Source: a virus
Taxonomy: Duplodnaviria; Heunggongvirae; Uroviricota; Caudoviricetes
Reading direction: 5' to 3' (one strand)
Virus record (IMG/VR): IMGVR_UViG_3300033121_001869
Span: 45,076 to 109,075 of that record
Length of the DNA: 64,000 nt
A program made the translations under genes and the position numbers. The notes beneath the pieces were generated by a model that saw only the letters and a program-made list of their open reading frames with translations, searched no databases and was not told the origin of the DNA. Shown here one piece after another: positions 2,526 to 62,081 of the stretch; positions within the stretch are counted from its first letter, which is position 1, and each line of letters opens with the position of its first letter.

Positions 2526-2933
2526 TTATCTAAAATTCAAATTTTTTCTATCAAAAATAATTATATCCATCTCTACAATTTCCTCGTATTCATACTCGGA
2601 AATAAAGTCTTCTACTGACAAAAATTCCATTGACCGATTATCCGGATCTATATGAATATCACAATTTATCGTAGATGATATTTTTTTCATCCTCATTATA
2701 TAATCCAATAATTTAGATATATCAATAAAATAATCATCTCCATGATTAATAGTTATTGAGATTGCATTATGAACAGAACTATTATTATGATAATCATGAT
2801 ATTTACATTCATAATTAGTATCGATTTCATAATTAGTATTATCAGATATATCCTGCACTATATCTTTAAAATCATCAACATAATCATATATGCTTATGTT
2901 TTCATTAGATTCAAATCTTTTTAGATACTTCAT
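2526..2933 (-). CDS. hypothetical protein with N-terminal capsid-targeting-like tag
   Basis: starts MKYLKRFESNE. Confidence 0.7.
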   Translation of the reverse strand: MKYLKRFESNENISIYDYVDDFKDIVQDISDNTNYEIDTNYECKYHDYHNNSSVHNAISITINHGDDYFIDISKLLDYIMRMKKISSTINCDIHIDPDNRSMEFLSVEDFISEYEYEEIVEMDIIIFDRKNLNFR

Positions 2934-3682
2934 TTAATGGAATTAATTCTTTCATATTGATATTTTCTAATATCAACATTAATATTATCTTTTAATGATG
3001 AGAATATCTTTATAAACATATCCATCATTAATCTACAATCTGTTAATGCATCATGATAACCCGACATATTAATACCTAAAGCTGGTCCAACTTTTGATAA
3101 TGATGATGATATCAATCCATTATCTCTATCAGATGTTCCAATTGATTGGACCATGTTTAAATAAAAATTATCTGTCTCAGATAATTTTAAAATAAGTGGT
3201 AAATAAAATAATTGTAATATCTGCTTAGTATCTATAATTTCATTTTTAAATTTTATATTAGGATTTCTAGTATTTAGAAAACTCATATCAAATTCGGCAT
3301 TCTGTATAATGAAAATTGAATTTGGATATTGATTAATGAAATCATAAAAATCCGAAATTGTATTTTGTTCATCATAATATTTAGTCTTTTGTCCATAATG
3401 ATTAAATGATAAAACTCTTTTGATATTATGAGTTTTCATTGATTGTAGAGTTGTATCTGTTAATTTTATCTTCTTATTAAATTGATCAACTTCTACAAAT
3501 CCATTATTCCATTTTGTAACTATACAAGATATTTGAGTTAATTGAACATCATATCCAGAATTTCTGAGACCTGTTGTCTCAGTATCAATCCATATCCAAT
3601 TTTTATCGAGCTTAGAATTAATATAGGAAATAAACTCCGAAATGGATTTCCCCCAAAATTTATGTTCAAATAAATGCATCAT
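2930..3682 (-). CDS. DEDDh (DnaQ-like) 3'-5' exonuclease
   Basis: IDTETTG, QNAEFD, IDT and YHDALTD motifs. Confidence 0.85.
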   Translation of the reverse strand: MMHLFEHKFWGKSISEFISYINSKLDKNWIWIDTETTGLRNSGYDVQLTQISCIVTKWNNGFVEVDQFNKKIKLTDTTLQSMKTHNIKRVLSFNHYGQKTKYYDEQNTISDFYDFINQYPNSIFIIQNAEFDMSFLNTRNPNIKFKNEIIDTKQILQLFYLPLILKLSETDNFYLNMVQSIGTSDRDNGLISSSLSKVGPALGINMSGYHDALTDCRLMMDMFIKIFSSLKDNINVDIRKYQYERINSIK

Positions 3683-3688
3683 TTTTAT

Positions 3689-4105
3689 TTAAAATTTTTT
3701 TCTAAAAGTGACCTCAAAATAATCAGCTTCATCAGATGATCTAGCAAATAAAAACATACCTCCAATATGTGGTAAATAAACCTCCTCACTATATGAAGGT
3801 GTAAATCCATCACCATCACTACAAGTCCGAATATCGCATCGATATCCAGACATATAAATCATTGCTCTTTTAATTGAGTCAACTCCTACTTTCCCAATTG
3901 ATACACCATGATCATAATTATCAAAAGCATCCCAATCAACAACAGGCATAATAATAACTCTATATCCATAATCCATTTTATCAGCTCTTATTTTCCAAGA
4001 GCTATTTTTTGAATAATCACCAATATCTTGAAAGATATTTTCTAATGTGATTTGAATATCATCTTTATCAAATTCAACGGATTCAAATTTCTTTAAATAT
4101 TTCAC
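3689..4105 (-). CDS. hypothetical protein, N-terminal tag
   Basis: GTG start, MKYLKKFESVE, TAATATATA 4 nt upstream. Confidence 0.7.
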   Translation of the reverse strand: MKYLKKFESVEFDKDDIQITLENIFQDIGDYSKNSSWKIRADKMDYGYRVIIMPVVDWDAFDNYDHGVSIGKVGVDSIKRAMIYMSGYRCDIRTCSDGDGFTPSYSEEVYLPHIGGMFLFARSSDEADYFEVTFRKKF

Positions 4106-4115
4106 AGATTATATA

Positions 4116-4685
4116 TTAATATAAATCAAAATTTAATTTCACACCATTTGGCTTAGAATATTCAATTTGATTTACCTTAAGATTATTGATTTTAAAATCT
4201 TTATTAACATATTTATCTGATGTTCCTAGATTAACAAAAGAAATTGTTATATGTGGTGTATAGTCAGGAAATTCATTTGAGTTAGGCAATTTTGAAAGTT
4301 CATCATGAAAGGATTGAAGAATATCGTTGTTTTTAACGCCCAATTTAACAACCTCAAATTCCTTATTCTTGAAATTAGTTATTCCTTCAATTTCAATATC
4401 GAAATTTTGATACTTATATTTATTTATAATACTAACCACATCAGAATCAGAAACATCTTGGTGTAGTCCATATAGTATTGTTAAGTGTGGATCATTTTCA
4501 ATCCCGTAACTAGGTGATGGCTCATAAATATCTTTTGTGTCTATTTTGGAAATAATTTGATTCCAATTTGGAATGTCTAATTCCAATAAAACACATCCAA
4601 ATTTATAATCCTCTGATTTTCTTCCCTCTTTTAAAAAGCTTTCATATTTCTTTAACATATAAATTATATAGTTTTTGAATTTCAT
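4116..4685 (-). CDS. 2H phosphoesterase, T4 gp57B/Acb1-like; probable start 4658 (MLKKYESFLKE)
   Basis: two HxT motifs PHLTILYG and FPDYTPHITISF. Confidence 0.8.
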   Translation of the reverse strand: MKFKNYIIYMLKKYESFLKEGRKSEDYKFGCVLLELDIPNWNQIISKIDTKDIYEPSPSYGIENDPHLTILYGLHQDVSDSDVVSIINKYKYQNFDIEIEGITNFKNKEFEVVKLGVKNNDILQSFHDELSKLPNSNEFPDYTPHITISFVNLGTSDKYVNKDFKINNLKVNQIEYSKPNGVKLNFDLY

Positions 4686-4721: not shown

Positions 4722-5531
4722 GTGTCAGAATTAATAAAATGGAGTGGTAGTAAGGAATCACAATCAAACCACATAATAAGCCATATTAAAAAAATAAAAT
4801 TTGAAAATTACTATGAACCATTTGTTGGTGGTGGGTCTATTTTCCTAAATTTATTAAAGACGGAAACAGATATTAAAAATTATTTTATATCCGATTTAAA
4901 TTCAGATTTAATTGGAATTTATAATTTGATAAAATTAAATCCTGATATAGTCATAGAAAGGTATAAATATCACTACTTTAATTATAACTCTAAAGACATC
5001 CAACATAGGAAAAATTATTTCAATGAAGTAAAAAAATTATACAATATTGATAAAGATCCAAGTGACTTTTATTTTATTATGAGAACAACAACAAATGGAA
5101 TGCCTCGGTATAATCAAAAAGGAGAATTTAATAATTCGTGTCATTTTTCTAGAAGTGGAATGGATCCTAAAAAAATATCAAATTTAATTATTGACTACCA
5201 CAAACTTTTTGAAAATATCAATTTCTATTCTTGTAGTTATGATAAAATAAATTATGCAAACAATAGCTTAATTTATCTAGATCCACCATATGAAAATACA
5301 AAAGGAATGTATTTTAATAATTTTAATAATTCTGATTTTCTAAATTGGCTAAACAACCTAAATCAAAAATGGATTCTATCATATGATGGAAATGGAAATG
5401 TAATTAATAATGATGTGTTGAAATATGACAGACATGTTTATTTAAATTCTGGAAATTCATCTTTTAAAAGAATATTGGGAAATTCTAAAGATTCTATTGT
5501 GAAAGAATCCATTTATTTAAAATTAAATTAA
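4722..5531 (+). CDS. dam: DNA adenine methyltransferase (Dam/D12 class)
   Basis: IKWSGSK, EPFVGGGS and YLDPPY motifs. Confidence 0.9.
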   Translation: MSELIKWSGSKESQSNHIISHIKKIKFENYYEPFVGGGSIFLNLLKTETDIKNYFISDLNSDLIGIYNLIKLNPDIVIERYKYHYFNYNSKDIQHRKNYFNEVKKLYNIDKDPSDFYFIMRTTTNGMPRYNQKGEFNNSCHFSRSGMDPKKISNLIIDYHKLFENINFYSCSYDKINYANNSLIYLDPPYENTKGMYFNNFNNSDFLNWLNNLNQKWILSYDGNGNVINNDVLKYDRHVYLNSGNSSFKRILGNSKDSIVKESIYLKLN

Positions 5532-6259
5532 TAGTAATCAAGTCCTGGATTTAATCCGAATTCGACAGTATTGATTATTCTTTCTCCTCTACCACTTGCG
5601 CCAGTATATGACTGTTTATAATCTCTATAAATTTTATATTTAGAAACCTCATTACCACTAAAGGTGCTATATGACCAAGTTATTTCTGTATTCAATTCAA
5701 CTCCAAATACTTTTAAGGTTTGAAAGTCCTTTATTAATTGGTCTTTATATTTATCTAACTCTTCTTTATTTTTGAATTCAAAATTTAATCTATGACTACT
5801 ACCAAAAGATGTATAAATATCAACTGAATTAGGTAGATTCAAAATTTTTCTCAATTTAGAATAATCAAACTTAATTCCATGTTTTGTTTCTTTATAAAAA
5901 TCACCTTCTTTTGATTTGCCTGGAGTGAAATGCAAAACAAATTCATAATCCGAATTACTAACTGAAAAATCACAATCTATATCATAATCAATATCATATA
6001 TTTTGTCAATTCTTTCAACAGATTCTTTTATCTCCTTTAAAAGACTCATTTCTTCCTCTTTGTGTGAGAGGAAAGACTCAAAATCTGAAGAATATGATAT
6101 ATTAATCTTTGACCATATAATAACTTCCTCACCACCATCATGAATCTCTATAAATACCCTCTCATCATCTATTAAATGACTAAATGAATCCTTAATAGCA
6201 TTGACAAAATCCTCTTGTCCAAAATTCTCAAATAATTTAATTCTCATATTACTTTTCAC
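5528..6259 (-). CDS. hypothetical protein, N-terminal tag (probable start 6247, MRIKLFENF)
   Basis: 243-aa ORF. Confidence 0.65.
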   Translation of the reverse strand: MKSNMRIKLFENFGQEDFVNAIKDSFSHLIDDERVFIEIHDGGEEVIIWSKINISYSSDFESFLSHKEEEMSLLKEIKESVERIDKIYDIDYDIDCDFSVSNSDYEFVLHFTPGKSKEGDFYKETKHGIKFDYSKLRKILNLPNSVDIYTSFGSSHRLNFEFKNKEELDKYKDQLIKDFQTLKVFGVELNTEITWSYSTFSGNEVSKYKIYRDYKQSYTGASGRGERIINTVEFGLNPGLDYY

Positions 6260-6710
6260 CGGAAAATGGAGAGATTAAGTGTTTTGTATTCCAACCAGAT
6301 ATAAATTTCTTATTATGCTTATCAAAATCTTCTCTAGTCTCGATATTAGAATCAATTACATTTTTATCAAAATGTATGTTAGCTCCTTGTTTTTTAAGAT
6401 TCGGTATTCTATCTCCTATATCTACTCCTTTTGTTTTCTTTCTTAATTGTCTTAATTGTCTTAAATTGTGATCACTTGGAAGAGATTCCTCAATTATTGC
6501 TGGTTCAGTGTGTGTATATCCACTAATATCATTTCTCTTGGATAATGTGTATAATATCTGTCTAATTGTTGCCTTAGTTAAATCACACTCCAATGCTAAC
6601 TGACCGATTTCAGTCATACCTTCATCCCAAAGTTCTTTTACAATTTCCATATCGGACATTGTAAAATCTTCATACTCATACATTTCATTAAATCTTAGTA
6701 TTCTAACCAT
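6249..6710 (-). CDS. hypothetical protein, N-terminal tag, possible HTH
   Basis: MVRILRFNE; TAATATATA at 6715-6723. Confidence 0.65.
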   Translation of the reverse strand: MVRILRFNEMYEYEDFTMSDMEIVKELWDEGMTEIGQLALECDLTKATIRQILYTLSKRNDISGYTHTEPAIIEESLPSDHNLRQLRQLRKKTKGVDIGDRIPNLKKQGANIHFDKNVIDSNIETREDFDKHNKKFISGWNTKHLISPFSGEK

Positions 6711-6760
6711 ATTTTATATATTAATTTTTATTTTTCATTAAAAATTCATAATTTTGTTGA

Positions 6761-7317: not shown

Positions 7318-7563
7318 GTGGATTTCAAGGACTTAGATAAATTAAAACTAATGACATATGATAAATATTCATCTAAAGATGTATCATATACTTTAAAATT
7401 TGATGATAATTACCATATTGGATATTTTGACATCAAGAATATATCTGGAATATCTGGATATAATAATGGAGTGATATTAGATTTAGAATTAAAAAAATTA
7501 GAAATAGAAAAAGCCCCAATAGATTGGATTAGGAATTTTCATATCAATGAATTATTGAATTGA
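7318..7563 (+). CDS. small hypothetical protein with C-terminal tag
   Basis: ends IRNFHINELLN. Confidence 0.55.
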   Translation: MDFKDLDKLKLMTYDKYSSKDVSYTLKFDDNYHIGYFDIKNISGISGYNNGVILDLELKKLEIEKAPIDWIRNFHINELLN

Positions 7564-7735
7564 TTTTCCTATCCCGTTTATAGGTAATCCAGAAATTCTC
7601 ATGACAAGAAAATTGAGTACCATCATCCAAGTAAAGAAAGTAAGTATCACCAACTTTATTTTCAACAACTATATTTAAAGAATCAATATAATTGATATCG
7701 ACTTCCAAATCAATTGATCCAATATGAATAACCAT
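7544..7735 (-). CDS. small hypothetical protein with C-terminal tag
   Basis: ends KRDRKINSIIH. Confidence 0.55.
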   Translation of the reverse strand: MVIHIGSIDLEVDINYIDSLNIVVENKVGDTYFLYLDDGTQFSCHENFWITYKRDRKINSIIH

Positions 7736-9746: not shown

Positions 9747-10307
9747 TTAAACCTTTTCGTCAAAAAAAACTTCACAGTGATCTTTAGAATAATATCCCGT
9801 TATTCCCCTAGATTTATTAATATCAGAAATAGCAAACATATCTTCACCATATCTATGTTTAAGACTCATTTTTGAAAAAGCTTTCTTCCAAGTATTGATA
9901 TCTGTCTTGACCCAAGATCCATGAGAATCAATTATTTCGTTCAAATCAACATAATCTCCTAAGTGGTGCCAAATATTACCATCTGATTTTCTAAATTCTT
10001 TTCTAATAGCTGAAATGCTCTTCTTTCTTCTTTTTTCCCACTTTTCAAATCCTTCTTCATTGTCATATTCATCCTTCCATTTAGGAACAACTCCTGGTTG
10101 AAAGGAGTCAATAGATCCAATTAGAAAAAGTTCTTGTGCTACTTTTGGCATGGCATAAAATCCTCTTGGTGCTGGGGGAGCATGAAATGTTTTTGGATCT
10201 TTAGAATATCCATCTTGGTTTTTTAAATCCAAACCACCAAATCGAACAAAGATATTTAAATCCTTTCCTTTTGGATTTTTATTTTTAAATCCATGTAAAT
10301 GTTTCAT
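9747..10307 (-). CDS. hypothetical protein
   Basis: 186-aa ORF, weak N-terminal tag MKHLHGF. Confidence 0.7.
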   Translation of the reverse strand: MKHLHGFKNKNPKGKDLNIFVRFGGLDLKNQDGYSKDPKTFHAPPAPRGFYAMPKVAQELFLIGSIDSFQPGVVPKWKDEYDNEEGFEKWEKRRKKSISAIRKEFRKSDGNIWHHLGDYVDLNEIIDSHGSWVKTDINTWKKAFSKMSLKHRYGEDMFAISDINKSRGITGYYSKDHCEVFFDEKV

Positions 10308-10328: not shown

Positions 10329-11186
10329 TTAAACTTCCACAACATATTGTCCACTATATTCCCTAAAATCTGGCTTTCTCATGACTGTTATAACTGTTAA
10401 TTTAAATTCATTCTCACCAGCCTCTAATTGACAAACAATGTTTAGATTTGTTTTTTTATTTCTTATGACAAATCTATTAGGTTCGCCAGCTTTAACTCCC
10501 TTAGTTGGATAATCATCCTCCTCTTGATTTATATTAAACTCATCTTGCATAAGTGAAATAGTCAACTGCTCAATCGATGATTGAATATCGTCCAATATTT
10601 CATCCTTAGAGATATTAGCTCCTATTTTATCATTATCATTTGATGAAAATCCATGTCTGAATTGTCTATCAAGTGCATGTGAAACTGCCTCAACATCAAT
10701 TCTAATTTCAACTGGTTCTTTTATATCACCAATGAATTCTGGCTTTCTATATGATTTTCCTATGTATGGATTTCTAATCTGATTAGTTTCTGAAATACCC
10801 TTCATTCGTCTTCGTGATACTTCCCTATCTTTTTTAGGAATATCTAATTTATCTATAACATCTATAAACTCCTGTGGTGGTTTATAATCATGTTTTTCAA
10901 TATAGTGTATTAATAATTCTGGATAGCAATAAATTTTGCCGTTTCCTCTAACTTCATAATTTGTAGATCCCCTAGCATCATTACAAAAAGGACAACGATG
11001 AAATCCCTTGTATCTTTCACTTGGTTCTATCAGTTTTAATTTCTGTATTATATTATCATCAACTTTACCTTTAGTATAATCCTTAGATGAATCTAACCAT
11101 CCAACATTAACTCTGCCTTCCTTTCTGGAATATGTATATGGTGTTAAATCTTCATAATATGATTCAAATAATTTTAAATACTTCAT
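10329..11186 (-). CDS. two-domain hypothetical protein, N-terminal tag
   Basis: MKYLKLFESYYEDLTPY, GFHRCPFC, HYIEKHDYKPP; TAATATATA at 11192-11200. Confidence 0.7.
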   Translation of the reverse strand: MKYLKLFESYYEDLTPYTYSRKEGRVNVGWLDSSKDYTKGKVDDNIIQKLKLIEPSERYKGFHRCPFCNDARGSTNYEVRGNGKIYCYPELLIHYIEKHDYKPPQEFIDVIDKLDIPKKDREVSRRRMKGISETNQIRNPYIGKSYRKPEFIGDIKEPVEIRIDVEAVSHALDRQFRHGFSSNDNDKIGANISKDEILDDIQSSIEQLTISLMQDEFNINQEEDDYPTKGVKAGEPNRFVIRNKKTNLNIVCQLEAGENEFKLTVITVMRKPDFREYSGQYVVEV

Positions 11187-11197
11187 AAGTGTATATA

Positions 11198-11599
11198 TTA
11201 TTTATAATAAATTGTTATATCAAATGATTCCTCCAAATCACCTTCAACTTGAACCCATTCCATATACTGCCTAATATTATCACATTCCACTTTATATCCA
11301 AGTCCCTCTATCAATTTAACAAAATGATAAATATCTGGACCCATTTGTTGAAATTTATCTAAATGATCAACTCCACACCATAAGTTTATTTGTAAATAAG
11401 GATCTGGTTTGTCCAATTCCAAACCATAAGTAAAGAAATTATAAAAAATACCAGGGGTTTCATCTTCACTTGTTAGAAATTCTTCTTTTTCCAAATTATA
11501 TTTATCAACTATATCTTGAAAATAGTTTGCAATCTCATTAATAAAATCTTCTTGATCAATCTTATCAATTAATTTTTCATATGTTTTTAAATATCTCAT
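11198..11599 (-). CDS. hypothetical protein, N-terminal tag
   Basis: MRYLKTYE. Confidence 0.65.
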   Translation of the reverse strand: MRYLKTYEKLIDKIDQEDFINEIANYFQDIVDKYNLEKEEFLTSEDETPGIFYNFFTYGLELDKPDPYLQINLWCGVDHLDKFQQMGPDIYHFVKLIEGLGYKVECDNIRQYMEWVQVEGDLEESFDITIYYK

Positions 11600-12261
11600 T
11601 TCACTTTAACACCCTCAAATTCAACATGAGGTAATTTTTCCTTAACTAATTTTTCAACAGCATTAACTATTTTAGATTTATCATCATAAAATTTAGCCTT
11701 TTTAAATCCACCATCTTCTATTATCTTAACAACTGTTTTTGATTTCCATATTGCAACTTTACTACCAGATTCATCTCTGCTAGGGTAACAATGCAATCCA
11801 TGGTTTGGCTGATCCAATCCTAATTTATCTAAATATTCAGATACTTTATCTTTAACTGTTTTAATTCTGGCAGTTACGATTGCTTTGTTTTTAACACTAT
11901 TGTAAAGCTTAGATAATTCTAATGATTTATCCGGAAAAGATAAATCCGTATAGTAGAATTTATCTGGTGAAAAAAGATAAACTCTAGATTTTTTTCTAAC
12001 CCAATTTCCTTTTACTTTTATTTTTTCATCTGGATCATCAACATATATTCGACCATTCTCTATTTTTAAATCATCAATTGAAACCTTTATTAGATTAACC
12101 GATTTGTTTACCAAATCTCTTATAGTAACATTTTCTTTAAGCAGTTTAATGACTAAATCCTCGAATTTCGGACTATCGACAATGGTTCCATCAAAATCAA
12201 ATATATGTATTGTCTCATCCTCTTTAAATTCAAACAACCTATAAGTTGAAATATACTTCAT
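11596..12261 (-). CDS. HAD-superfamily phosphatase, N-terminal tag
   Basis: IFDFDGT motif I, FYDDK motif IV. Confidence 0.75.
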   Translation of the reverse strand: MKYISTYRLFEFKEDETIHIFDFDGTIVDSPKFEDLVIKLLKENVTIRDLVNKSVNLIKVSIDDLKIENGRIYVDDPDEKIKVKGNWVRKKSRVYLFSPDKFYYTDLSFPDKSLELSKLYNSVKNKAIVTARIKTVKDKVSEYLDKLGLDQPNHGLHCYPSRDESGSKVAIWKSKTVVKIIEDGGFKKAKFYDDKSKIVNAVEKLVKEKLPHVEFEGVKVK

Positions 12262-12274
12262 TCAGTATATATTA

Positions 12275-12988
12275 TTATTTAGACCAAGTATTCAAATCTT
12301 CTTTTTCTTTAGGAGTCAAAGAATCCATGCCATATTTAGATATCTTATCTAAAATGTCATCCAATTCCTTCGGAGCTTGCATATCATCCAAATGTGAAAG
12401 TGCTTTATCAAAATGACTCAATGTTTCCTCTTTACTTCTATTAAATATTTTTGGATTCCTTGGATCTAATTCTTTCATTATTTCTGTCAGTTCTTTTAAT
12501 TCATTTAGAAACTTTTGATGTTCAAAAACGCTATCATCCACCATTTTAACAATAGATATAATTTTTTTAAAAAGTTCAATACTTTGATTTAACTTTTCTA
12601 CTTGTTTCTGTTTGATATCCTCATTATCAGACACTATTAAATTTTCAATCTTTAATTTATCAATTATATCTTCGGAAGATTTATAAACATCAATACCACT
12701 TTTTAATTTAATATATTCTGAGAAACTTGTATTATAAACTTCATTATTTATCTTCTTAGATATTCTCATTTTAATAGCATTGGTAAATACCGCATCTATA
12801 ATATTAATAGTAGTATCTGTGAGATCAGATTCTAATTTTTTATCTTTGAATATAAATGGAAAATAATTTCCTTTAATCTTTTGTGCCAAAATATTTATAT
12901 ACCCAGTGACTTGTAAAATACTTTTCAAAATAAATCTTGTGATTTTACCTTCATTAATGAATTCACTATATGTTGTTATATGTTTCAT
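12275..12988 (-). CDS. hypothetical protein, N-terminal tag, C-terminal DUF6576-like helix pair
   Basis: MKHITTYSEFINEG; LDDILDKISKYGMDSLTPKEKEDL. Confidence 0.7.
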   Translation of the reverse strand: MKHITTYSEFINEGKITRFILKSILQVTGYINILAQKIKGNYFPFIFKDKKLESDLTDTTINIIDAVFTNAIKMRISKKINNEVYNTSFSEYIKLKSGIDVYKSSEDIIDKLKIENLIVSDNEDIKQKQVEKLNQSIELFKKIISIVKMVDDSVFEHQKFLNELKELTEIMKELDPRNPKIFNRSKEETLSHFDKALSHLDDMQAPKELDDILDKISKYGMDSLTPKEKEDLNTWSK

Positions 12989-12998
12989 TTATTATATA

Positions 12999-13982
12999 TT
13001 ATTTATACTTCCAAATAAAACCACTTGCGGATTTTAATCTACCAACACAACAATCACCAATATTTCCATCATTGACATTACAAGTAACAGAGGCTTCTTT
13101 AATTGATTTAAATTCATTTAATAAAATTCCATCTTTTGAATATTGAAAAACTGCCCTTAGTGTACTTCTATCAAGTTTATCCAATCCCAAATCAAACCAA
13201 GAATCTTTATATCTCCAAATAAATCCATGACAAGTCTTCATTCTACCTTGGCAACATCTTTCAGGTTTAATTTTTAAATTTTTATATACCGAAATAGCAC
13301 TATCCCACTCCTTTATCAAATTACCACTCAAGTCATATTGTAAAACAATTTTTGTTGGTTGAGAAGCACATTGTTTTTTCCAAATTCTTTTATCTTTCTT
13401 TATATCATAATCTTTAATATTATCCCAAACCTTTTTCTCACTACAATCTAACTTTTCGGCAATTTTCGGCATTGATAAATTCTCTTTAATATAAAGTTGA
13501 TATAATAAATCTCTATCGATTGGTTGTTTCAAATTATCACCTGATCGATTGTAGTTTGGAGTTTCCAAAGACTTTTCTTTAATAGAAATTGATATTTTAT
13601 TTTTATGTTCTTCAGATAATTTTTGACCAAGTTTAGATTTTCTCATTCTATCTCTGGATTCTTCGGTGTGTTTATATCCACTTCCACCTTGACCACCATC
13701 AGTTAAATTGGTTAAGTTATATCCTCTTGATTTATACAATTCAATATAATAACATTCCCAGTATTTCCACTCATCTTGTGGAACTTCATCTACTATTTTA
13801 ATTAATGGTTTAAGTCCTTTAGATAATAAAGATTTTATCCAAGATATTTTATGTGATCTTTTGTCAGATTTAGATTCTTGGATATGTGAGTAGAGTCTTT
13901 GTTTAAGATATTGATCTGTTTTTCCGATATACCTAACTTCTTCGGTTATTGGATCACAAAGTGAATAAATAAAAGTTTTCAT
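12999..13982 (-). CDS. GIY-YIG homing endonuclease with NUMOD repeats
   Basis: FIYSLCDP...YIGKT, E..YI, NLTDGGQG, HTEESR, VLQYDLSG repeats. Confidence 0.85.
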   Translation of the reverse strand: MKTFIYSLCDPITEEVRYIGKTDQYLKQRLYSHIQESKSDKRSHKISWIKSLLSKGLKPLIKIVDEVPQDEWKYWECYYIELYKSRGYNLTNLTDGGQGGSGYKHTEESRDRMRKSKLGQKLSEEHKNKISISIKEKSLETPNYNRSGDNLKQPIDRDLLYQLYIKENLSMPKIAEKLDCSEKKVWDNIKDYDIKKDKRIWKKQCASQPTKIVLQYDLSGNLIKEWDSAISVYKNLKIKPERCCQGRMKTCHGFIWRYKDSWFDLGLDKLDRSTLRAVFQYSKDGILLNEFKSIKEASVTCNVNDGNIGDCCVGRLKSASGFIWKYK

Positions 13983-15208: not shown

Positions 15209-16249
15209 TTATTTAAAGTTATTACTCTTACCCAGATCTCTTAAAATATTTTTCTCATCACTTGTAATAGAAGTTGGTATTTTTATATTAATTCTAATAA
15301 ATAAATCTCCCATTCTACCGTGCATATCGGGGATTCCTTTACCAACCACTCTAAGAAGCTTGCCGTGTGAGGTTCCTGGTAATATAGTGTATTTTATGTC
15401 TGTATTGTGTGGTGTTTTAATAGACTTTTCAACACCCAATATAGCATCAATAACAGGAATTGTTTCATCATAAATAAGATTTATATCTTCTCGTTTAAAT
15501 TTAGAATCTGGTATTTCATCAATGATTATTTGTAGATCCCCAGGAATACCATCTTTTATGTGATTTCCATATTGTGGCATAGACATGTAATTACCATCTA
15601 CTGCTCCTTTAGGTATTTCAACATCAACGGTTTCTTGTTTAACAACTACACCCTGCCCATGACATTTTTTACAAGGATTTTTAACAGATTTTCCATTTCC
15701 AGAACAATGTGAACAAACAGCAGTTTGTCTAATCGATCCAAATGCTGTATTTTGAACATAACTTCTATGTCCAGTTCCATTACAGTGTCCACAATTTACA
15801 ATATCTTCTCCTCCTTTACCATCACAAGTATCACATTTAACATTTCTATTATATTTTATTTTCTTGCGAACACCAAATATAATATCATTCAATGTTAAAC
15901 TAACTGTCATTCTTAAATCAGATCCCTTACGTCTTTGTTGTTGTCTGCGGTTTCCAAAACTTCCAAAAATATCTCCAAATTGTGAAAATAGATCTTCAAA
16001 AGGAACTCCGCTTCCTCCACCAAATGGATTTTGATTACCTGTTGTTCCAAATCTATCGTATTGTGATTTTTTTTCTTCGTCGGAAAGAATTGAGTATGCA
16101 TTTGAAATTTGTTTAAATTTTTCTTCAGATTCCTTCGATCCATTATTTTTATCCGGATGGTATTTCAATGCCAACCTTTTATATGCCTTTTTAATGTCAC
16201 TAGAAGTAGCATTATTGTCTAATTCTAGTATTTTATACAAGTCTTCCAT
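15209..16249 (-). CDS. dnaJ: chaperone DnaJ
   Basis: J domain with HPD, four CxxCxGxG repeats, GDL motifs. Confidence 0.97.
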   Translation of the reverse strand: MEDLYKILELDNNATSSDIKKAYKRLALKYHPDKNNGSKESEEKFKQISNAYSILSDEEKKSQYDRFGTTGNQNPFGGGSGVPFEDLFSQFGDIFGSFGNRRQQQRRKGSDLRMTVSLTLNDIIFGVRKKIKYNRNVKCDTCDGKGGEDIVNCGHCNGTGHRSYVQNTAFGSIRQTAVCSHCSGNGKSVKNPCKKCHGQGVVVKQETVDVEIPKGAVDGNYMSMPQYGNHIKDGIPGDLQIIIDEIPDSKFKREDINLIYDETIPVIDAILGVEKSIKTPHNTDIKYTILPGTSHGKLLRVVGKGIPDMHGRMGDLFIRINIKIPTSITSDEKNILRDLGKSNNFK

Positions 16250-17213: not shown

Positions 17214-17654
17214 TTATTGTGAAATAATTACTTTTGGATATTTAATGATTTTACCATTCAAAGTATATCCCTTTGATACAACACTAACAATGCCTTCGGT
17301 TCCAGTATTAATAACGGAAATAACTTCATGTAGGTTATCGTCATATTTATCTATCGGGACTTCCTCAATTCCTTGTGAATTGAGGAAATTTTTAAATTTA
17401 TCAGATATAAACTGAATATCCTTCAGAGTTTTTTCATCCTTTATCATTTTCAATGCTATATGTAAATCATTATCTAAATCTAAAATAGCATTTAATGATT
17501 GTAGTTTTGTGGAGTTTTTAATTTCTTCCTTTTCCTTCAAAACCCTTTTTTTATAATTTTCAAAATCGGCATATAACCGAACATAACTATCCTTCCAATC
17601 TTGCTCAGCCTTCTCCGTCTCAATCTCTATTTTTTCAATTTTGTCTGTCTCCAT
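17214..17654 (-). CDS. grpE: nucleotide exchange factor GrpE
   Basis: RLYADFENYKKR, LHEVI, KGYTLNGKIIKYPKV. Confidence 0.93.
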   Translation of the reverse strand: METDKIEKIEIETEKAEQDWKDSYVRLYADFENYKKRVLKEKEEIKNSTKLQSLNAILDLDNDLHIALKMIKDEKTLKDIQFISDKFKNFLNSQGIEEVPIDKYDDNLHEVISVINTGTEGIVSVVSKGYTLNGKIIKYPKVIISQ

Positions 17655-19291: not shown

Positions 19292-19301
19292 TATATACGT
19301 T

Positions 19302-26888: not shown

Positions 26889-26895
26889 AAAAAAA

Positions 26896-46943: not shown

Positions 46944-47706
46944 ATCCTATAAAGTCCTATTTGATAGAATTGACGACATACTAACAGGATGCGGTATGTT
47001 TGATGAATTTCCAGAGTTAAGGTTTAGTATTGAGAATTCAAAATGGTCTTATGCTATTGAAAGAATGATAGAATTTGGTGAAATATCTAAAGAAGATGCT
47101 GAAGATTTAGTTAAAAAATCATTTTTTATTGAGATTTTTGAAGATGTAGATATGTTAAGAAAAGAAGTTCTACATTATACAGAGCCAAAAATTTGGAAAA
47201 TAATTGAAGAAATTAATTTAAGATTAAAATCTTATGGACTTAAAGTATGTTATTCTGAATTTGGAGCAAATGATTTATCCTACGAATTAATAATAACTGA
47301 CATAAACTATAACTTTAAAAAATTAAATGAGTCTTCAATTGCAGCTTTAAAATACAAGTTTCGAAAAAATGATTTAATTCCGCAAGTTAAAGATATACTA
47401 AATGATTTAGATGATAATTTCCTAATATCAGAAGTTTTTTTCGAAGATCAAATCATCACATCATCTAAAACATTAGTAGTCAATATTAAAAAATCAGAAT
47501 GGGTTTCTAATATTAAAATATCAAAAATTTCAGATTCTATAAATCATATGATAGACTTCCTTAAAAAAGAAGGGTTTAATCTAAATTATCTATCCTATCA
47601 ATCTAGAGAAAGCGCAGTAGAGTCAATACCAATTAAGGATAATATAATAAGTGATATACCGGATATAATTTTTAATAATTTAGTATTAAAATTTATATCC
47701 CAATAG
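46915..47706 (+). CDS. hypothetical protein, N-terminal tag
   Basis: MRHLKTYESY; internal FKKLNES. Confidence 0.7.
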   Translation: MKMRHLKTYESYKVLFDRIDDILTGCGMFDEFPELRFSIENSKWSYAIERMIEFGEISKEDAEDLVKKSFFIEIFEDVDMLRKEVLHYTEPKIWKIIEEINLRLKSYGLKVCYSEFGANDLSYELIITDINYNFKKLNESSIAALKYKFRKNDLIPQVKDILNDLDDNFLISEVFFEDQIITSSKTLVVNIKKSEWVSNIKISKISDSINHMIDFLKKEGFNLNYLSYQSRESAVESIPIKDNIISDIPDIIFNNLVLKFISQ

Positions 47707-48270: not shown

Positions 48271-48808
48271 TTATGAGATATTTGTTGAGGAAATGTCTAT
48301 GGCTCCTTTGTATCATGCAATCGAGTTTAAAAAAGGCGAAAAAGCTATAAGGTCAAATAAATTAGATTGTTATTCCTTTCAGAGAATTTGGGATGAAGGC
48401 AAAAGATTAAAAGATGATGATCCAGAATATTACAAGTCTAAATATCTAAGAGGAATATCACTGAGTAGAGATATTGAATATGCTAAAGTTTGGAATAATA
48501 TTGTATTTGAATTTGATCAATCTAAATTGAAAACAAAATGGAAAATAATACCTTACAATTGGGGATATTCAATTGGTGGTGGATATAGACAGAAAGAAAG
48601 AGCTAAAAGAGAACGTGAGGAATTTTTAATTACCGGAATCACAAAAGAGATTGACATAGAAAAACCATTTGGAAGTATTCAGCCGTTGGATAAATATTTG
48701 ACAGGATTTTGGATAGATTCCTTTATTAAAGGATTAAACGGATATGATACTAGATATTTAGAGAATCATGAATTATTTAAGGGATTTTTTAATCGAAGAA
48801 AAAATTAA
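48260..48808 (+). CDS. hypothetical protein, N-terminal tag
   Basis: MIFNYEIFVEE; LYH...ISLSR...EREE pattern is weakly ADP-ribosyltransferase-like. Confidence 0.6.
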   Translation: MIFNYEIFVEEMSMAPLYHAIEFKKGEKAIRSNKLDCYSFQRIWDEGKRLKDDDPEYYKSKYLRGISLSRDIEYAKVWNNIVFEFDQSKLKTKWKIIPYNWGYSIGGGYRQKERAKREREEFLITGITKEIDIEKPFGSIQPLDKYLTGFWIDSFIKGLNGYDTRYLENHELFKGFFNRRKN

Positions 48809-49014
48809 GACTTCTTCTTAACTTTCTTAGGAGGAGTTGTTTTAAAAGAAACTACTTTCTTTTTATTAATTGTTGGCATTCCAGATTCATCTTTTCCAAT
48901 TTCTTTAACAATTGTTTTTTTATTTTTAAATCTACCCATATAGATTGTATCACCAATATTTACTGGAATATTTATATCTTCATTTAATTCTATGAATGAT
49001 TTTATATACTTCAT
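48805..49014 (-). CDS. small hypothetical protein, N-terminal tag
   Basis: MKYIKSFIELNEDINIPVNIGDTIYMGRFKNK. Confidence 0.7.
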   Translation of the reverse strand: MKYIKSFIELNEDINIPVNIGDTIYMGRFKNKKTIVKEIGKDESGMPTINKKKVVSFKTTPPKKVKKKS

Positions 49015-52151: not shown

Positions 52152-53540
52152 TTAATTTCCAATTTCTTTTAACCAATCACTCATTTCTAATGATTTCCAA
52201 GCACCCTCCAATTCATCATCTGACATTTCTGTTAGATCTGTCAAATTAAAATTAGAAGACGCTGATAGTAATTCTATTATCTCTTCTCTATTCATAGTAT
52301 TAAATGGAGAATCAAAAGATTCAAATAGCCTAATATATCTCATACTCTCAGAACTCTCAATATATTGGAATTGTCCAGATTTTAACATATCAACATCTCT
52401 TTGAGATGTATGGAATAATTTAACAAAATTATCTAATACTTTAAATGTTCTCTCAATATCCTCTGGATGAAAAAGAAGTCCATATCTTTTTAAATTATCA
52501 TTAGATATTGCTGTAATAATATTTCCAACTTTTCCGATAACTTTAAATCCATCCGGACATTTTGTAACAATATCATGGAAAGCAAAGCTAAATTCACAAT
52601 TTTCCAAATCTATACCATCAAATAAAAAAGATTTATCATAACTTGTTAATTTTTTTGAACTTTGTACAAATTTACCTGAATCTTTTACCTCACCACCATG
52701 AAAAACAACCATTGATTGCATACCGTAACATAAACCAAGAATCGGACACTTAAGTATCTCCAAAGCCTTTTTACTTGCCAATGGCTCCGACTCATCTAAT
52801 GGTTTTGTAAATCTATAATCTGATCCAGATAAGATAGCACCAACGATATTATCATTAGAATTAATTCTACTAACATCTTCTGGATTTGTAGCAACAATAT
52901 ATTCAATTCCTCGCATTTTTAAATATTTTAAAATATTATGTAAAAAACGATTCTCTTGTGGTTTTGCATTATTTACTACCATAACTTTTTGATCCCCAGA
53001 AAGAGGAGCCAATTTAACATCTTCAGCAACATATGTTTCTGGATATTTATCTATAAAAGAGAAATCTTTTGTCTGAAATTTAAATCCAAAGGCATTTATA
53101 AATTTAGTCAAATCTTTTATAGAATCATCACATAATCCAAAGTGTGTTTCGGGATCCGCTTTTGATCCTATACCATTGTAATGGATAACATCTAATTTAT
53201 TAGGTTGTTTTACACTAAATTCGGATACCATACTATCACCATATGTAATATCAATAAGGATTTTTAGCTTATTATCCTCTTTAACAAAATGCATATCAAA
53301 TTCTAATGTATCGGGCTCACCATCTGCCAGAGCATTTCCACCAAATTCTTCCATTGTATTATGCTCATAGCAAATTCTTAGAATATCTATCTCTCTAGTA
53401 ATGGTATCCTTTTTCATGGAAAATTCACCATTAGACGTATAAATTCTGAATTTTTCAGGTAAGAATTTCTTTATAGCCTCATCATAAATAACAACCGAGT
53501 CCTCATGATTAGATTCATAGAAAGATTTTAAATACTTCAT
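52152..53540 (-). CDS. class I glutamine amidotransferase (GuaA N-domain-like) fused to tagged modules
   Basis: ILSGS, PILGLCYGMQ, LLFHPE triad; MKYLKSFYES; internal MRYIRLFES at 52343. Confidence 0.8.
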   Translation of the reverse strand: MKYLKSFYESNHEDSVVIYDEAIKKFLPEKFRIYTSNGEFSMKKDTITREIDILRICYEHNTMEEFGGNALADGEPDTLEFDMHFVKEDNKLKILIDITYGDSMVSEFSVKQPNKLDVIHYNGIGSKADPETHFGLCDDSIKDLTKFINAFGFKFQTKDFSFIDKYPETYVAEDVKLAPLSGDQKVMVVNNAKPQENRFLHNILKYLKMRGIEYIVATNPEDVSRINSNDNIVGAILSGSDYRFTKPLDESEPLASKKALEILKCPILGLCYGMQSMVVFHGGEVKDSGKFVQSSKKLTSYDKSFLFDGIDLENCEFSFAFHDIVTKCPDGFKVIGKVGNIITAISNDNLKRYGLLFHPEDIERTFKVLDNFVKLFHTSQRDVDMLKSGQFQYIESSESMRYIRLFESFDSPFNTMNREEIIELLSASSNFNLTDLTEMSDDELEGAWKSLEMSDWLKEIGN

Positions 53541-53556
53541 GAATCTATATATTAAA

Positions 53557-54249: not shown

Positions 54250-54580
54250 ATTTAAATATGTTTTTTTGTTTTTGTCTATCAGAAATTTGACTTTCCCATT
54301 TTTTATTTTTCAATTCTACTTCTGATAAAAGTTCTTCCAAGGAGATATTAAATCTAGAACATATCAAAAGTAAATTTTGTAATGTGTCTGCCATTTCTTC
54401 CTTTATATTAGATAAAACTTCCTCATTTGTTTCCCTTAATATCTTACGTCCAGTAGTTTTATTAATTTCTCGGATTAATTCACCAGATTCTTCAACAAAT
54501 TTACAAACGGCTTCGGAAATTGAACATTTATCTGTTTTGTCGAGAGTTTTAATTTCCTCGTATATTTTTTCTATTTTCAT
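54239..54580 (-). CDS. MazG-like NTP pyrophosphohydrolase
   Basis: EESGEL...KEEMADTL...KNKKW. Confidence 0.8.
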   Translation of the reverse strand: MKIEKIYEEIKTLDKTDKCSISEAVCKFVEESGELIREINKTTGRKILRETNEEVLSNIKEEMADTLQNLLLICSRFNISLEELLSEVELKNKKWESQISDRQKQKNIFKYEN

Positions 54581-54852
54581 TTTATAATCTCATTTAATTT
54601 TTTTTCTCTTAGGACAGATACACTAATTGGACACCATTGTGGAACTTTAACATTTTTAGTCTGATACGGTCTTAATCCAACATCAATAGATTTAAATGGG
54701 TATCTATCTACCAAATATTCAGATTTTTTATCGGGAACTTTCATGACTTTTGTACAAACTAAAGCAACATCATCCTGATTAAACCAATCCGTAGGATCTG
54801 GATCTTCAACAACCTTATGGTTTGGACAATCTATGCATCTTTCGTAGTGCAT
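54577..54852 (-). CDS. small Cys-containing protein with C-terminal tag
   Basis: CIDCP...PQWCP; ends LREKKLNEIIK. Confidence 0.65.
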   Translation of the reverse strand: MHYERCIDCPNHKVVEDPDPTDWFNQDDVALVCTKVMKVPDKKSEYLVDRYPFKSIDVGLRPYQTKNVKVPQWCPISVSVLREKKLNEIIK

Positions 54853-55118
54853 TAGTCTAAAATTTTTTCTATTTTATCATCACGAAATTCAACCTTCAGT
54901 AATGATTTAATATATTCAGCCATTCTAATACCCCTTACTTCTATTTTATATCTAACATTTGAATTTACAACAATATTCAATACCCATCTATCATGGTCGA
55001 TTGACTCATATTTATGAATATAAACATATTCAAGACCATCTTGAATAAGTCTACCTTCAACTCCAGGGGTTATTCTAGTAATAGCTAGAACATAATCCTT
55101 TCCTTTTTCGAAAATCAT
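54852..55118 (-). CDS. small protein with C-terminal tag
   Basis: ends FRDDKIEKILD. Confidence 0.6.
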   Translation of the reverse strand: MIFEKGKDYVLAITRITPGVEGRLIQDGLEYVYIHKYESIDHDRWVLNIVVNSNVRYKIEVRGIRMAEYIKSLLKVEFRDDKIEKILD

Positions 55119-59723: not shown

Positions 59724-60944
59724 ATGAAAAAATTTAATGTTAAGGAAACATTTCTAAAATTAACTTCTCAGACATATCCTCACGGTACTGAGCACCTATT
59801 ATTTGATATTTTGCCTCAAAACCTTATCATGGACGATTTTGGTAATTTATTCATTCAAATTGGTGAAAGTGATGTGATGTTTACATCACACTTAGATACA
59901 GCAACATCAGTTAAAACTGATGTTAATCACGTTTTTGATGGTGATCTTATTAAAACAGATGGTAAAACAATATTAGGAGCTGATGATAAAGCTGGTGTAA
60001 CGATCATGCTTTATATGATTCAAAATAAAATTCCTGGACTTTACTATTTCTTCCTTGGTGAAGAAGTGGGTTGTGTAGGATCAAAAAAAGTATCTGGTAT
60101 ACATAAAACAGAGCCATTGTCAAATATTAAAAAAGTTATCTCTTTTGATAGAAGAGGAACTGATTCGATAATTACTTTTCAAGCCAGTTCAAGATGTTGT
60201 TCAGATACCTTTGGTAAGGCTCTTGCTGACCAATTAAATTTAAATGAAAGTACATTTAAATATAGGACTGACCCAACTGGATTATACACAGACTCAGCAC
60301 AATTTACATCAATATATCCAGAATGTACGAACATATCTGTTGGTTACTATTCTGAACACACTTTCATGGAAAGACAAGATATCGAACACTTAACTAAATT
60401 AGCAGAAGCTTGTTTAAAAGTTGATTGGAAGTCATTACCTGTTGAGAGAGATCCTTCTAAGATTGAATACTCTGATTACTATGATGATTGGTATGGATAC
60501 GGATATGGTGTTGGTTATGGATCTGGTAGGTATAATACTGGCAGATACAATACTGGAAAATCATATGCCGGTAGCACAAAGCCAAGTGTAATAGTGCCAG
60601 ATGAGAAAGTATTTTTCTACGACAAACAATATGAGTTTCTAAGTAGTTATAAAATAAATAAATCAACTGGTATATTCAGTGATGTAGATATACATGCATC
60701 AAGAATCAAAGATGAAACAGATTTAATTATTGATTTATTTTCACAAATTGAATTAGAATACTCTTCTATTCTGTGGGATGGTTTAAGGTTGACTGTTTTT
60801 CATGAAAATGGTGAAACAGTAAATTCAAATCGTAATGAAATGATTGAGTACTTTCCTCAATTTGATTTGACAAAAATACCTGAATTTGAATTTGACGAAA
60901 AAAGAAAACTATACATAAACGACGAATATTGCGGAGATATGTAA
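59724..60944 (+). CDS. M28/M20-family metallopeptidase
   Basis: SHLDT, LGADDKAG, GEEVG, SFDRRG, HTFME. Confidence 0.85.
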   Translation: MKKFNVKETFLKLTSQTYPHGTEHLLFDILPQNLIMDDFGNLFIQIGESDVMFTSHLDTATSVKTDVNHVFDGDLIKTDGKTILGADDKAGVTIMLYMIQNKIPGLYYFFLGEEVGCVGSKKVSGIHKTEPLSNIKKVISFDRRGTDSIITFQASSRCCSDTFGKALADQLNLNESTFKYRTDPTGLYTDSAQFTSIYPECTNISVGYYSEHTFMERQDIEHLTKLAEACLKVDWKSLPVERDPSKIEYSDYYDDWYGYGYGVGYGSGRYNTGRYNTGKSYAGSTKPSVIVPDEKVFFYDKQYEFLSSYKINKSTGIFSDVDIHASRIKDETDLIIDLFSQIELEYSSILWDGLRLTVFHENGETVNSNRNEMIEYFPQFDLTKIPEFEFDEKRKLYINDEYCGDM

Positions 60945-60951
60945 TAAAAGT

Positions 60952-60974
60952 AACCACCGAAAGGTGGTTTTTTT
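60952..60974 (+). terminator. intrinsic terminator
   Basis: aaccacc-gaaa-ggtggtt plus ttttt. Confidence 0.85.
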
Positions 60975-61130
60975 ATGCCAGAAATTCCGTATATTTGTAC
61001 AATGAAATTTCTCAATTTTCAATTACCCGATTACATGAAAAGTAGGTCGTGAACCTAGATGGTAATGTTTCTAAAAATGAAAAGTATCTTTCTCAGAAAG
61101 ATGAAAACTCTATTATAGATTATTTGGATT

Positions 61131-62081
61131 CTATAAATTTATAGACATATCTAAAAAATGTCCATCTTCCCCATCAATACTAAATCCAAATTTTTTATAT
61201 AAATTAATAGCAGCTATATTATTCCTCAATACTTCTAATTTTATTGAGTTACAATTAAATTTTTTAGCTCTGGCAAAAATTTCCTCCATTACTTTTGTTC
61301 CATACTTATTACCACGATACTTTTGATTAATCTCAATCATAACTACATGAAATATATTGTCTTTTATTCTATAATGTAGTGTTCCAATTCGGTTTTCATC
61401 ATCATATAAAATACTAACATTGTCACCCTTTCTTACAAATCCAATTCCTCTCGGATCTTCTTTCACGATAGTATCATTAAACGTAATATGTTCGTTAAAA
61501 TTAAATACTGACATTCTTTTTATTACATTATTAATACCAAGATACTTTAGCTGAATATTTATTAACTCCATATCAGCTTCTACTTTATTGGTAAATTCAA
61601 ACTCATCCCCATTAACACCTATAAAAATATAATAATCTCCTATGCGCATGCCGTTGACACTATTGATCATCTCTATTAAAATATAATCATCACCTTTCAA
61701 ATCTATTTGACCTGAGATTTTTTCACCAACTCTGCTTATATTTTTATGAAATGAAACATCCCTTATAAGTTCTATTCCTTTTTTATACAAGGTGTCTAGA
61801 AATGATAAAGTCATGATCAATAGATATAAGGTCTTGTTTCTGAAATCATAAGAACATATCTCATATCCAATTTTTGATATAATATAATTAATGACATGTA
61901 TACCAGACTCATCAAAAGATTCACAATCCTCATAATACAAAGCTAAAAATCCACTATGGTATTTAGTCATGTCATTAGATATGTATTTTGGACTTGAATC
62001 AGTTAGATATTGAAGCGCATCTAAAATATCAGAAAGATCATCTTCATCAACCCTCTCATTAAATAATCTTAGATGTTTCAT
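61131..62081 (-). CDS. tagged protein with C-terminal GNAT acetyltransferase domain
   Basis: MKHLRLFNE; KYRGNKYGTK, LEVLRNNIAAINLYKKFGF. Confidence 0.8.
   Translation of the reverse strand: MKHLRLFNERVDEDDLSDILDALQYLTDSSPKYISNDMTKYHSGFLALYYEDCESFDESGIHVINYIISKIGYEICSYDFRNKTLYLLIMTLSFLDTLYKKGIELIRDVSFHKNISRVGEKISGQIDLKGDDYILIEMINSVNGMRIGDYYIFIGVNGDEFEFTNKVEADMELINIQLKYLGINNVIKRMSVFNFNEHITFNDTIVKEDPRGIGFVRKGDNVSILYDDENRIGTLHYRIKDNIFHVVMIEINQKYRGNKYGTKVMEEIFARAKKFNCNSIKLEVLRNNIAAINLYKKFGFSIDGEDGHFLDMSINL

Follow-up and report, generated by a model that had tools for sequence, protein, structure and literature searches.

The stretch of DNA analysed here (the window, 64,000 nucleotides) comprises bases 45,076-109,075 of a linear viral contig of 182,437 bp and 27.7% GC (IMG/VR record IMGVR_UViG_3300033121_001869). 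The window encodes DnaK, DnaJ, GrpE, NusG, gp32, a 5'-3' exonuclease, GMP reductase, UvdE and a T4-type terminase N-domain, and it contains a cluster of nine tRNAs as well as GIY-YIG-like N-termini and a LAGLIDADG-type homing endonuclease. It also contains 24 open reading frames (ORFs), plus one candidate internal start, that begin with versions of the same short peptide. This N-terminal tag is the subject of our analysis. The DnaK of the contig is 78-79% identical to those of the uncultured 'huge phages' LR745206 (634,780 bp) and LR756502 (642,428 bp), which group by capsid protein with LR756504 and LR756501/LR756503 (735 kb). LR756500, the Lak phages and cultured Bacteroidota jumbo phages such as Tenacibaculum phage PTm1 are more distant by the same measure. 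The clade is known as 'Mahaphage' and has predicted Bacteroidetes hosts (PMC7162821). The lineage is uncultured, and its closest cultured phage is PTm1. Because no capsid or protease gene was found in the 182,437 bp contig, we regard the contig as a fragment.

The tag is about ten residues long and has the consensus M-[KR]-[YHN]-[LI]-[KR]-x-[FY]-(x)-E-S. Its dominant short form is MKYLKxF(N)ES, and a longer variant is of the type M-K-x-x-x-Y-x-x-F-I-x-E-S. For counting, we used a strict core pattern, M[KR][YHNWIVL][LIVF][KR].[FY], which requires a hydrophobic residue at position 4 and Phe or Tyr at position 7 and does not include the Glu. The scan of the genome and its relatives that the original prediction had proposed, carried out with this pattern and a position-specific scoring matrix (PSSM), found the tag at 29 ORF starts of the contig (0.05-0.14 expected from amino-acid composition) and on 74 of the 942 ORFs of LR745206, where the tagged genes are scattered round the complete 635 kb genome. 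All strict-core matches at ORF starts lie inside the first 12 residues of the called ORF. Six-frame translation of the contig gives 30 matches, compared with 0-4 (about 2) in 20 second-order Markov shuffles. The PSSM, trained solely on the independent relative LR745206, scored at least 6 bits at 34 of 256 contig ORF starts, but at only 3 of 712 internal methionines. Overall, the tag is over-represented about 200-fold and is strictly N-terminal. The residues at positions 4 (L/I/V/F) and 7 (F/Y) of the 74 LR745206 tags were demanded by the search pattern. The Glu is present at position 8-18 in 103 of 103 core tags from the two genomes, at 8-9 in 73% of them, and the residue that follows it (P1') is Ser in 46%, against a background of 7%. 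A hydrophobic residue occupies P3 in the long and F-N-E forms; the frequent x-F-E form has none there.

Position 3 of the tag varies among Tyr, His and Asn, which are single-nucleotide neighbours. Synonymous codons at the conserved Lys, Leu, Ile, Phe and Tyr positions follow genome-wide usage, which shows that selection acts on the tag peptide and not on the DNA. PTm1 matches in base composition (29.7% GC), host phylum and head-gene layout, and the strict core is found in none of its 331 ORFs; two tag-like proteins of PTm1 are annotated merely as 'hypothetical'. The original prediction had named nucleotide bias alone as one of the findings that could overturn it. The shuffles, the free synonymous codons and the result for PTm1 together exclude composition or AT bias as the cause of the tag. 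The prediction had also spoken of about 30 tagged proteins: the N-termini that it listed are all present at ORF starts, but the number in the window is the smaller one given above. The shared tag is a short, transferable N-terminal peptide selected at the peptide level. We found no description of the motif strings, or of tags resembling the capsid-targeting sequence (CTS) of phage T4 in huge phages, in the searchable open literature.

The same pattern of tags is seen in LR756502, while LR756504 and LR756501 have looser tags built on [YF]-K-x-F-x-E. No tags were present in 42 kb samples of LR756500 and Lak-B5. A narrow DNA pattern of one tag variant retrieved 67 stretches from IMG/VR, on contigs that in some cases reach 676 kb, and in the flanks of these stretches further, unseeded tags occur on 8.4% of ORFs. 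In this phage and its 600-700 kb relatives, the tag is found on about 8-11% of all genes. Inspection by eye of the 11 reciprocal-best ortholog pairs between the contig and LR745206 in which a tag occurs revealed a tag on both sides in every case, even where its form changes. Across a large clade of huge phages, orthologs have kept the tag.

The bodies that follow the tag are unrelated, as had been predicted: an all-against-all BLASTP comparison of 39 bodies yielded one pair, and at least eight unrelated Pfam folds are tagged. Pfam confirms five of the predicted identities, namely a 2H/Acb1-like phosphoesterase, an Rnl1 RNA ligase, a leucine-rich repeat (LRR) protein, a class-I glutamine amidotransferase (GATase) and a GNAT acetyltransferase. 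The predicted HAD phosphatase shows a visible DFDGT motif and no Pfam match, and the scramblase-like protein has a sub-threshold match to the LOR family. The predicted exonuclease is not cleanly tagged. This RNase T-type protein (2930-3682, - strand) has a degenerate tag-like start, MMHLFEHKF; the LR745206 homologue of its domain forms the C-terminal part of a 438 aa protein with a proper long-form N-terminal tag. The prediction that core genes lack the tag held for DnaK, DnaJ, GrpE, NusG, the GuaC-like protein, the 5'-3' exonuclease, gp32, UvdE and Dam.

Conservation is lower among tagged genes than among the rest (an LR745206 ortholog exists for 8 of 35, compared with 94 of 221 other genes). 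They often lie in tandem arrays and are mostly ORFans: only 2 of 58 tagged proteins of LR745206 have Pfam matches, and Pfam and PHROGs together yield almost nothing. Strain variants gain and lose tagged genes. The internal-protein loci of T4 are likewise accessory, fast-evolving and strain-variable. As a separate observation, contigs of three sequencing runs join position 26780 of the window directly to 28657, which removes exactly two tagged genes (26781-28656). One protein in the tagged set of LR745206 is a cell-wall hydrolase of the Peptidase_M15 type (9e-15); a lysin carried in the virion would be unsurprising as capsid or ejection cargo.

The RNA ligase allows the tag to be followed through more than 110 orthologs (66-100% identical), whose common start is M-K-[IL]-x-x-Y-x-x-F-[IL]-x-E-S. 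Phe9 and Glu12 are invariant, Tyr6 is at least 90% conserved and the x positions drift. The ligase tag is under purifying selection, with change in neighbouring residues. Since the search pattern itself demanded the residues at positions 4 and 7 of the core tags, the ligase family provides the independent evidence for these determinants. Its spacing equals that of Tyr4, Phe7, Ile8 and Glu10 of the T4 CTS and that of the T4 gp23 cleavage site, FGSFLTE↓A. An AlphaFold2 model of the ligase (mean predicted local distance difference test score, pLDDT, of 64, from a shallow alignment of close relatives) shows the tag as an unconfident helix followed by a linker, and in the protein at 10329-11186 the DUF7919 domain begins at residue 10, directly after the tag. 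By these two examples, the tag is an add-on.

The shared N-terminus might also be mostly historical, in the sense of being the conserved start of one large, fast-diverging paralog family that was spread further by recombination at gene starts and has no common present function. A second acidic motif after the tag is common to about 19% of tagged proteins, and some of the tagged small proteins therefore form a diffuse paralog family. The tandem arrays of ORFans and the single-nucleotide variation at position 3 fit such a history as well. It does not account for the unrelated Pfam folds that carry the tag, for the selection on the ligase tag or for the retention of the tag in all ortholog pairs despite changes of form, and we consider a purely historical origin improbable.

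The head machinery of this lineage can be seen in the relatives. LR745206, LR756502, LR756504 and LR756501 all carry both the tag and a gp23-type major capsid protein (MCP; PF07068, 89-96 bits in two of them). Directly upstream of the MCP gene is an ORF of 700-800 aa that encodes a gp21-like protease fused to a scaffold, an arrangement unlike that of T4. The first ~170 residues align with T4 gp21 (E=2e-5), with the motifs G-E-x-x-H-P and V-S-S-R-x-x-G in register, and the protease region is 33% identical (E=5e-26) to the 'prohead core scaffolding protein and protease' of PTm1, which itself scores above the Pfam S77 threshold. The scaffold part consists of 10-13 near-perfect tandem units of 14 residues, K-N-I-A-Y-S-E-Y-[IL]-A-E-N-L-D, followed by a poly-acidic stretch (for example, LR745206 198546-200669), and the repeats are kept in 79 IMG/VR loci. 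T4 gp22 contains a single similar segment, KEWLAENK. Hydrophobic-x-Glu (h-x-E) sites occur 8.2 times per 100 aa in the scaffold and 8.6 times in T4 gp22, compared with 2.7 times genome-wide. The N-terminus of the protease-scaffold protein, MKPVLIVENS, is itself tag-like (T4 gp21 starts with MNEPQLLIE). Among the tags of the window, MKHITTYSEFINEG is nearest to both the T4 CTS, MKTYQEFIAE, and the scaffold repeat, YSEYIAE. On the contig, a 98 aa ORF outside the window (G000:C1:179351-179647, - strand) shows weak similarity to the gp23 family in its N-terminal portion (profile positions 9-31, E=1.3e-3). This ORF adjoins a run of four tagged genes (179671-181662) and could represent a fragment of a capsid protein or a decoy.

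In LR745206, a promoter-like box, (A/T)ATATATA, precedes the portal, protease-scaffold and MCP genes by 19-31 nt. It also stands before the giant structural-looking ORFs of the contig, and none was found before dnaK, dnaJ, grpE, nusG, rnh, DNA ligase or guaC. The box stands before tagged and untagged genes alike, but it directly precedes a larger share of the tagged ones (34% vs 11% in the contig, p=0.0025; 30% vs 9%, or about threefold, in LR745206, p=2.8e-6). Its distance from the start codon is bimodal, either 4-5 nt or ~17-30 nt (see the box positions in Table 1). If the box is a -10-like element, the class at 4-5 nt implies leaderless or near-leaderless mRNAs. Putatively, the box is the clade's analogue of the T4 late promoter, TATAAATA, in which case many tagged genes would fall into the same temporal class as the head genes.

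The proximity of box and start codon could also mean that both belong to an expression module, in which the tag assists initiation or early elongation on mRNAs that are leaderless or lack a Shine-Dalgarno sequence in a Bacteroidota host. The box is 4-5 nt from the start codon in one third of tagged genes, which implies little or no leader, and well-expressed genes often have Lys at position 2 and begin with AT-rich codons. However, the free choice of synonymous codons leaves the RNA of the tag unconstrained, the same box at the same spacing mostly precedes untagged genes, and two thirds of the tagged genes have no close box. Moreover, PTm1 has the same composition and host phylum and does without the tag, and conservation at the aromatic, Glu and Ser positions suggests that the peptide is recognised. 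We judge a role in expression to be quite unlikely.

The closest known peptide is the T4 CTS, MKTYQEFIAE, which is cut after Glu10 (PMC8442874). Targeting depends mainly on its residues 4 and 7, and processing on residues 8 and 10 (PMC9026906). Like the CTS, the tag comprises ~10 residues at the extreme N-terminus and starts with M-K; in register from Met1, positions 4 and 7 are hydrophobic or aromatic, and a Glu followed by a small residue comes next. Both are modular and are found on unrelated, fast-evolving accessory proteins. The tag-bearing relatives also share with T4 a capsid protein of the gp23 type, a protease of the gp21 type and a scaffold that is rich in Glu and full of h-x-E sites, and the T4 gp24 propeptide, MAKINELLRE↓S, has the same Glu-Ser junction as many of the tags. 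The original prediction had interpreted the tag as a T4-style capsid-targeting propeptide. The likeness at the mapped determinant positions and the T4-type head genes of the relatives favour this interpretation, as do the Glu present in every core tag, the enrichment of the head-gene box before tagged genes and the lack of the tag on replication and chaperone genes. The nature of the cargo and of the cleavage site does not. Of the explanations considered, capsid loading is the best one, and we give it an even chance of being correct. If it is correct, the tagged proteins would be made together with the head proteins, and the basic amphipathic first seven residues, M-K-[YH]-[LI]-K-x-[FY], would dock to the prohead's acidic scaffolding core. 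Next, the gp21-like protease, scaffold-fused in this lineage, would cut after the conserved Glu, ...[FY]-(N)-E↓S, leaving the bodies inside the head to enter the host with the DNA. Docking, cleavage, retention and injection are steps that we infer.

Several points weigh against capsid loading. The tagged bodies are acidic, with a median pI of 4.6-4.8; 78-90% are below 5.5, and 3-4% are basic, compared with 27-33% of other ORFs (p about 1e-9). T4 internal proteins are highly basic (PMC8442874), small and DNA-associated, and the cargo here, unlike theirs, includes enzymes (RNA ligase, GATase, GNAT, 2H phosphoesterase). The T4 h-x-E rule is followed only in part, as the dominant tag form has its Glu at position 8-9 and often a non-hydrophobic P3. 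T-even phages use a handful of such sequences; a tag on ~8-11% of genes, or at least 74 per complete genome, goes beyond any documented use of a CTS. The 'very large encapsidated cargo' of the original prediction is an inference. Some of the spread of the tag is due to paralogy, as the shared second motif indicates. The box is immediately upstream of only about one third of the tagged genes. The head module is known solely from relatives, the contig being a fragment without head genes. Finally, a PSSM of the scaffold repeat (872 units) recognises only the long-form tags MKHITTYSEFINE, MIKNYKNFIAES, MKVIKFSEFIKES and MRLFKYKDFIKES, and its N-terminal enrichment is weak and non-significant, save at the top threshold in LR745206 (p=0.02). 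We have dropped the idea that the tag in general mimics a scaffold unit, since the dominant short form MKYLKxF(N)ES is not recognised; at best, mimicry may be true of a long-form subclass. A predicted complex of scaffold repeat region 250-450 with ligase residues 1-45 scored 0.00, with a partner pLDDT <50, and was used neither way.

Another known case is that of the phiKZ-like giant phages (phiKZ gp175, 201phi2-1, SPN3US gp245), whose dozens of packaged proteins are processed after Glu by a diverged gp21-like protease. Many of their processed inner-body or ejection proteins are injected (PMC9026906, PMC10052503, PMC13282480). The phiKZ-like propeptides are long, however, and share no common short tag; the cleavage motif is S/A/G-x-E, and lineage, capsid family and hosts are different.

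A second tag is located at the other end of the protein. The pattern [RK]-x-x-[KR]-[ILV]-x-x-[ILVF]-[LIVF], 0-3 residues from the C-terminus (consensus R-[DEN]-x-K-[IL]-[ND]-x-[IL]-L), occurs in 14 of 256 contig ORFs and in 76 of 942 ORFs of LR745206 (~8%), compared with 0.3-1 expected, mostly on small proteins (median 108 aa). The two tags are almost mutually exclusive: none of the 14 and one of the 76 proteins carry both (Fisher p=0.02). It is possible, though we rather doubt it, that these two terminal labels, on about one sixth of the proteome of the 0.6-0.7 Mb Mahaphage lineage, both load the prohead. The virion would then deliver a 'starter proteome' of 100-150 mostly unknown acidic proteins and enzymes, including functions in RNA repair and anti-signalling.

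A second exclusive tag on ~8% of proteins may suggest a general addressing system that is not necessarily specific to the capsid. The N-terminal tag would in that case act as a handle for docking to, or sorting by, another partner, such as the phage DnaK/DnaJ/GrpE, a lifetime-controlling protease or an intracellular hub. The window encodes the complete DnaK, DnaJ and GrpE set, and acidic soluble cargo would suit cytoplasmic clients. Hsp70 binds, roughly, peptides in which hydrophobic residues are flanked by Lys or Arg, and the first seven residues of the tag are of this type. Hsp70 binding leaves the invariant Glu, often with Ser next to it, unexplained, and the Lak phages encode DnaK but have no tags in the 42 kb sample. 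Furthermore, the match to the T4 CTS determinants and the link of the box to the head genes would have to be coincidence. We consider such a handle unlikely.

The tag could also be a leader for a modifying enzyme, as in ribosomally synthesised and post-translationally modified peptides, with one radical-SAM maturase acting on many substrates. A radical-SAM gene outside the window (G000:C1:8324-9280, + strand) adjoins four tagged genes, its LR745206 counterpart adjoins tagged genes too, and no such gene occurs in PTm1, which lacks the tag. This proximity reflects a single conserved syntenic pair, however, and not a set of independent events; only 1 of 74 tagged genes of LR745206 is within eight genes of the enzyme, and a search of 594 kb of tag-seeded loci found no copy. 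The enzyme lacks a SPASM domain and cannot be placed with confidence in a subfamily. Both its domains and its linkage led us to reject the maturase as reader of the tag, and a leader function of this kind is very improbable. The radical-SAM protein itself has its best similarity, far below threshold, to the prokaryotic viperin family.

If capsid loading is correct, ~75-100 carried-in proteins per genome of these largest known phages, nearly all without a known family, could be listed from sequence. They would be the first to consider for roles in immediate-early host takeover and counter-defence; those that can be identified here are the Acb1-like 2H phosphoesterase, the Rnl1 RNA ligase, the GNAT and the LRR protein. 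The CTS principle of T4 would be extended from a few internal proteins to sorting on a proteome scale, and the tag would be a portable means of loading cargo into very large capsids. Were both terminal labels to load the prohead, they would provide a sequence-only readout of the injected proteome of uncultured phages. If the tag has nothing to do with the capsid, about one tenth of the genes of a phage lineage abundant in wastewater still bear an undescribed address label under strong selection.

Table 1. Tagged ORFs of the window, with examples of the C-terminal tag in the last row. Positions are window coordinates. PSSM values are scores in bits on the LR745206-trained matrix; box denotes the (A/T)ATATATA element.
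Position (strand)	Length	Tag and product	PSSM (bits)	Box	Remarks
2526-2933 (-)	135 aa	MKYLKRFESNEN	21.9		No Pfam; near-ORFan, small acidic subfamily; 4 homologs only
3689-4105 (-)	138 aa	MKYLKKFESVEF; GTG start	21.6	4110-4117, 4 nt from start	
4116-4658 (-)	180 aa	Variant tag MLKKYESFLKEG; 2H phosphoesterase/Acb1-like			PF13563 2.3e-9, PF23474 1.8e-6; internal ATG of ORF 4116-4685
5528-6247 (-)	239 aa	Variant tag MRIKLFENFGQED			No Pfam
6249-6710 (-)	153 aa	Variant tag MVRILRFNEMYEYE		6715-6722, 4 nt from start	
9747-10307 (-)	186 aa	MKHLHGFKNKNPK; doubtful member	6.6		No early Glu; body not acidic
10329-11186 (-)	285 aa	MKYLKLFESYYED; DUF7919		11192-11199	PF25535 1.4e-28, residues 10-110
11198-11599 (-)	133 aa	MRYLKTYEKLID; very acidic	12.6		
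11596-12261 (-)	221 aa	MKYISTYRLFEFKED, then HAD-like motif DFDGT	6.0	12266-12273	No Pfam
12275-12988 (-)		Long-form tag MKHITTYSEFINEG; C-terminal DUF6576		12993-13000	Best scaffold-PSSM score, 9.3
19302-20129 (+)	275 aa	MKYLKSFESINF	19.3	19290-19297	
20882-22141 (+)		MLKYSNFLLEQK; candidate internal start within ORF 20126-22141		20869-20876	LR745206 ortholog is a separate 418 aa tagged gene
22157-23128 (+)	323 aa	MKHLRSYKLFESNQ; GTG start; LRR	23.1		PF12799
26896-27621 (+)	241 aa	MKWIKKYKHLNSLNES	7.5		In segment absent from strain variant
27782-28291 (-)	169 aa	MKHIKRFDELNES	19.5		Internal ATG of ORF 27782-28324; same variable segment as 26896-27621
28699-29217 (-)	172 aa	MKYLKKIFETNS			LR745206 ortholog tagged too
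29220-30482 (-)	420 aa	Long-form tag MRLFKYKDFIKES; GTG start; T4 Rnl1-type RNA ligase		30487-30494	PF09511 6e-19
31478-32020 (-)	180 aa	Long-form tag MKVIKFSEFIKES; very acidic		32026-32033	Ortholog tagged
41801-42475 (+)	224 aa	MKWIKKFEAKRK	13.2		
44846-45568 (+)	240 aa	MKNVKKYRDFCNEE; GTG start; weakly LOR/scramblase-like		44834-44841	PF04525 3.4e-4, below cut-off
45597-46943 (+)	448 aa	MRNIKKFEAFSDE	13.7		
46921-47706 (+)	261 aa	MRHLKTYESYK	21.2		LR745206 ortholog has long-form tag MLKKYSEFIKYKVFEG
48805-49014 (-)	69 aa	MKYIKSFIELNED	13.5		Among the few basic bodies
52152-53540 (-)	462 aa	MKYLKSFYESNHED; class-I GATase	20.0	53546-53553	PF00117 5.3e-20
61131-62081 (-)	316 aa	MKHLRLFNERVDED; GNAT acetyltransferase	16.6		PF00583 1.3e-14
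6761-59672		C-terminal tag, examples			7544-7735, 36619-36951, 40902-41423, 54577-55118

The ORF at 20126-22141 (+ strand, 671 aa) contains an in-frame internal box and an ATG at 20882, from which a tagged product of 419 aa would be made. It may represent two products of one frame or a fused annotation.

Near-identical DNA is present in wastewater and activated-sludge runs from ten studies. Three wastewater 'metatranscriptome' runs contain ~91% of a 10 kb stretch, as contigs only. These contigs cover 20 kb evenly and on both strands; they therefore represent DNA carry-over and are uninformative on transcription starts or timing.

Three further features of the window were noted. The complete Hsp70 system consists of DnaJ (with zinc-finger and C-terminal domains), GrpE and DnaK, at 15209-16249, 17214-17654 and 23187-25061, all on the - strand. 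In a 311 aa ORF (38386-39321, - strand), only the N-terminal (ATPase) domain of a T4-type large terminase is recognised, and the terminase gene may be split. Lastly, one DNA run joins position 13083 to 13880, which removes most of the ORF of a GIY-YIG-type homing endonuclease (13084-13879).

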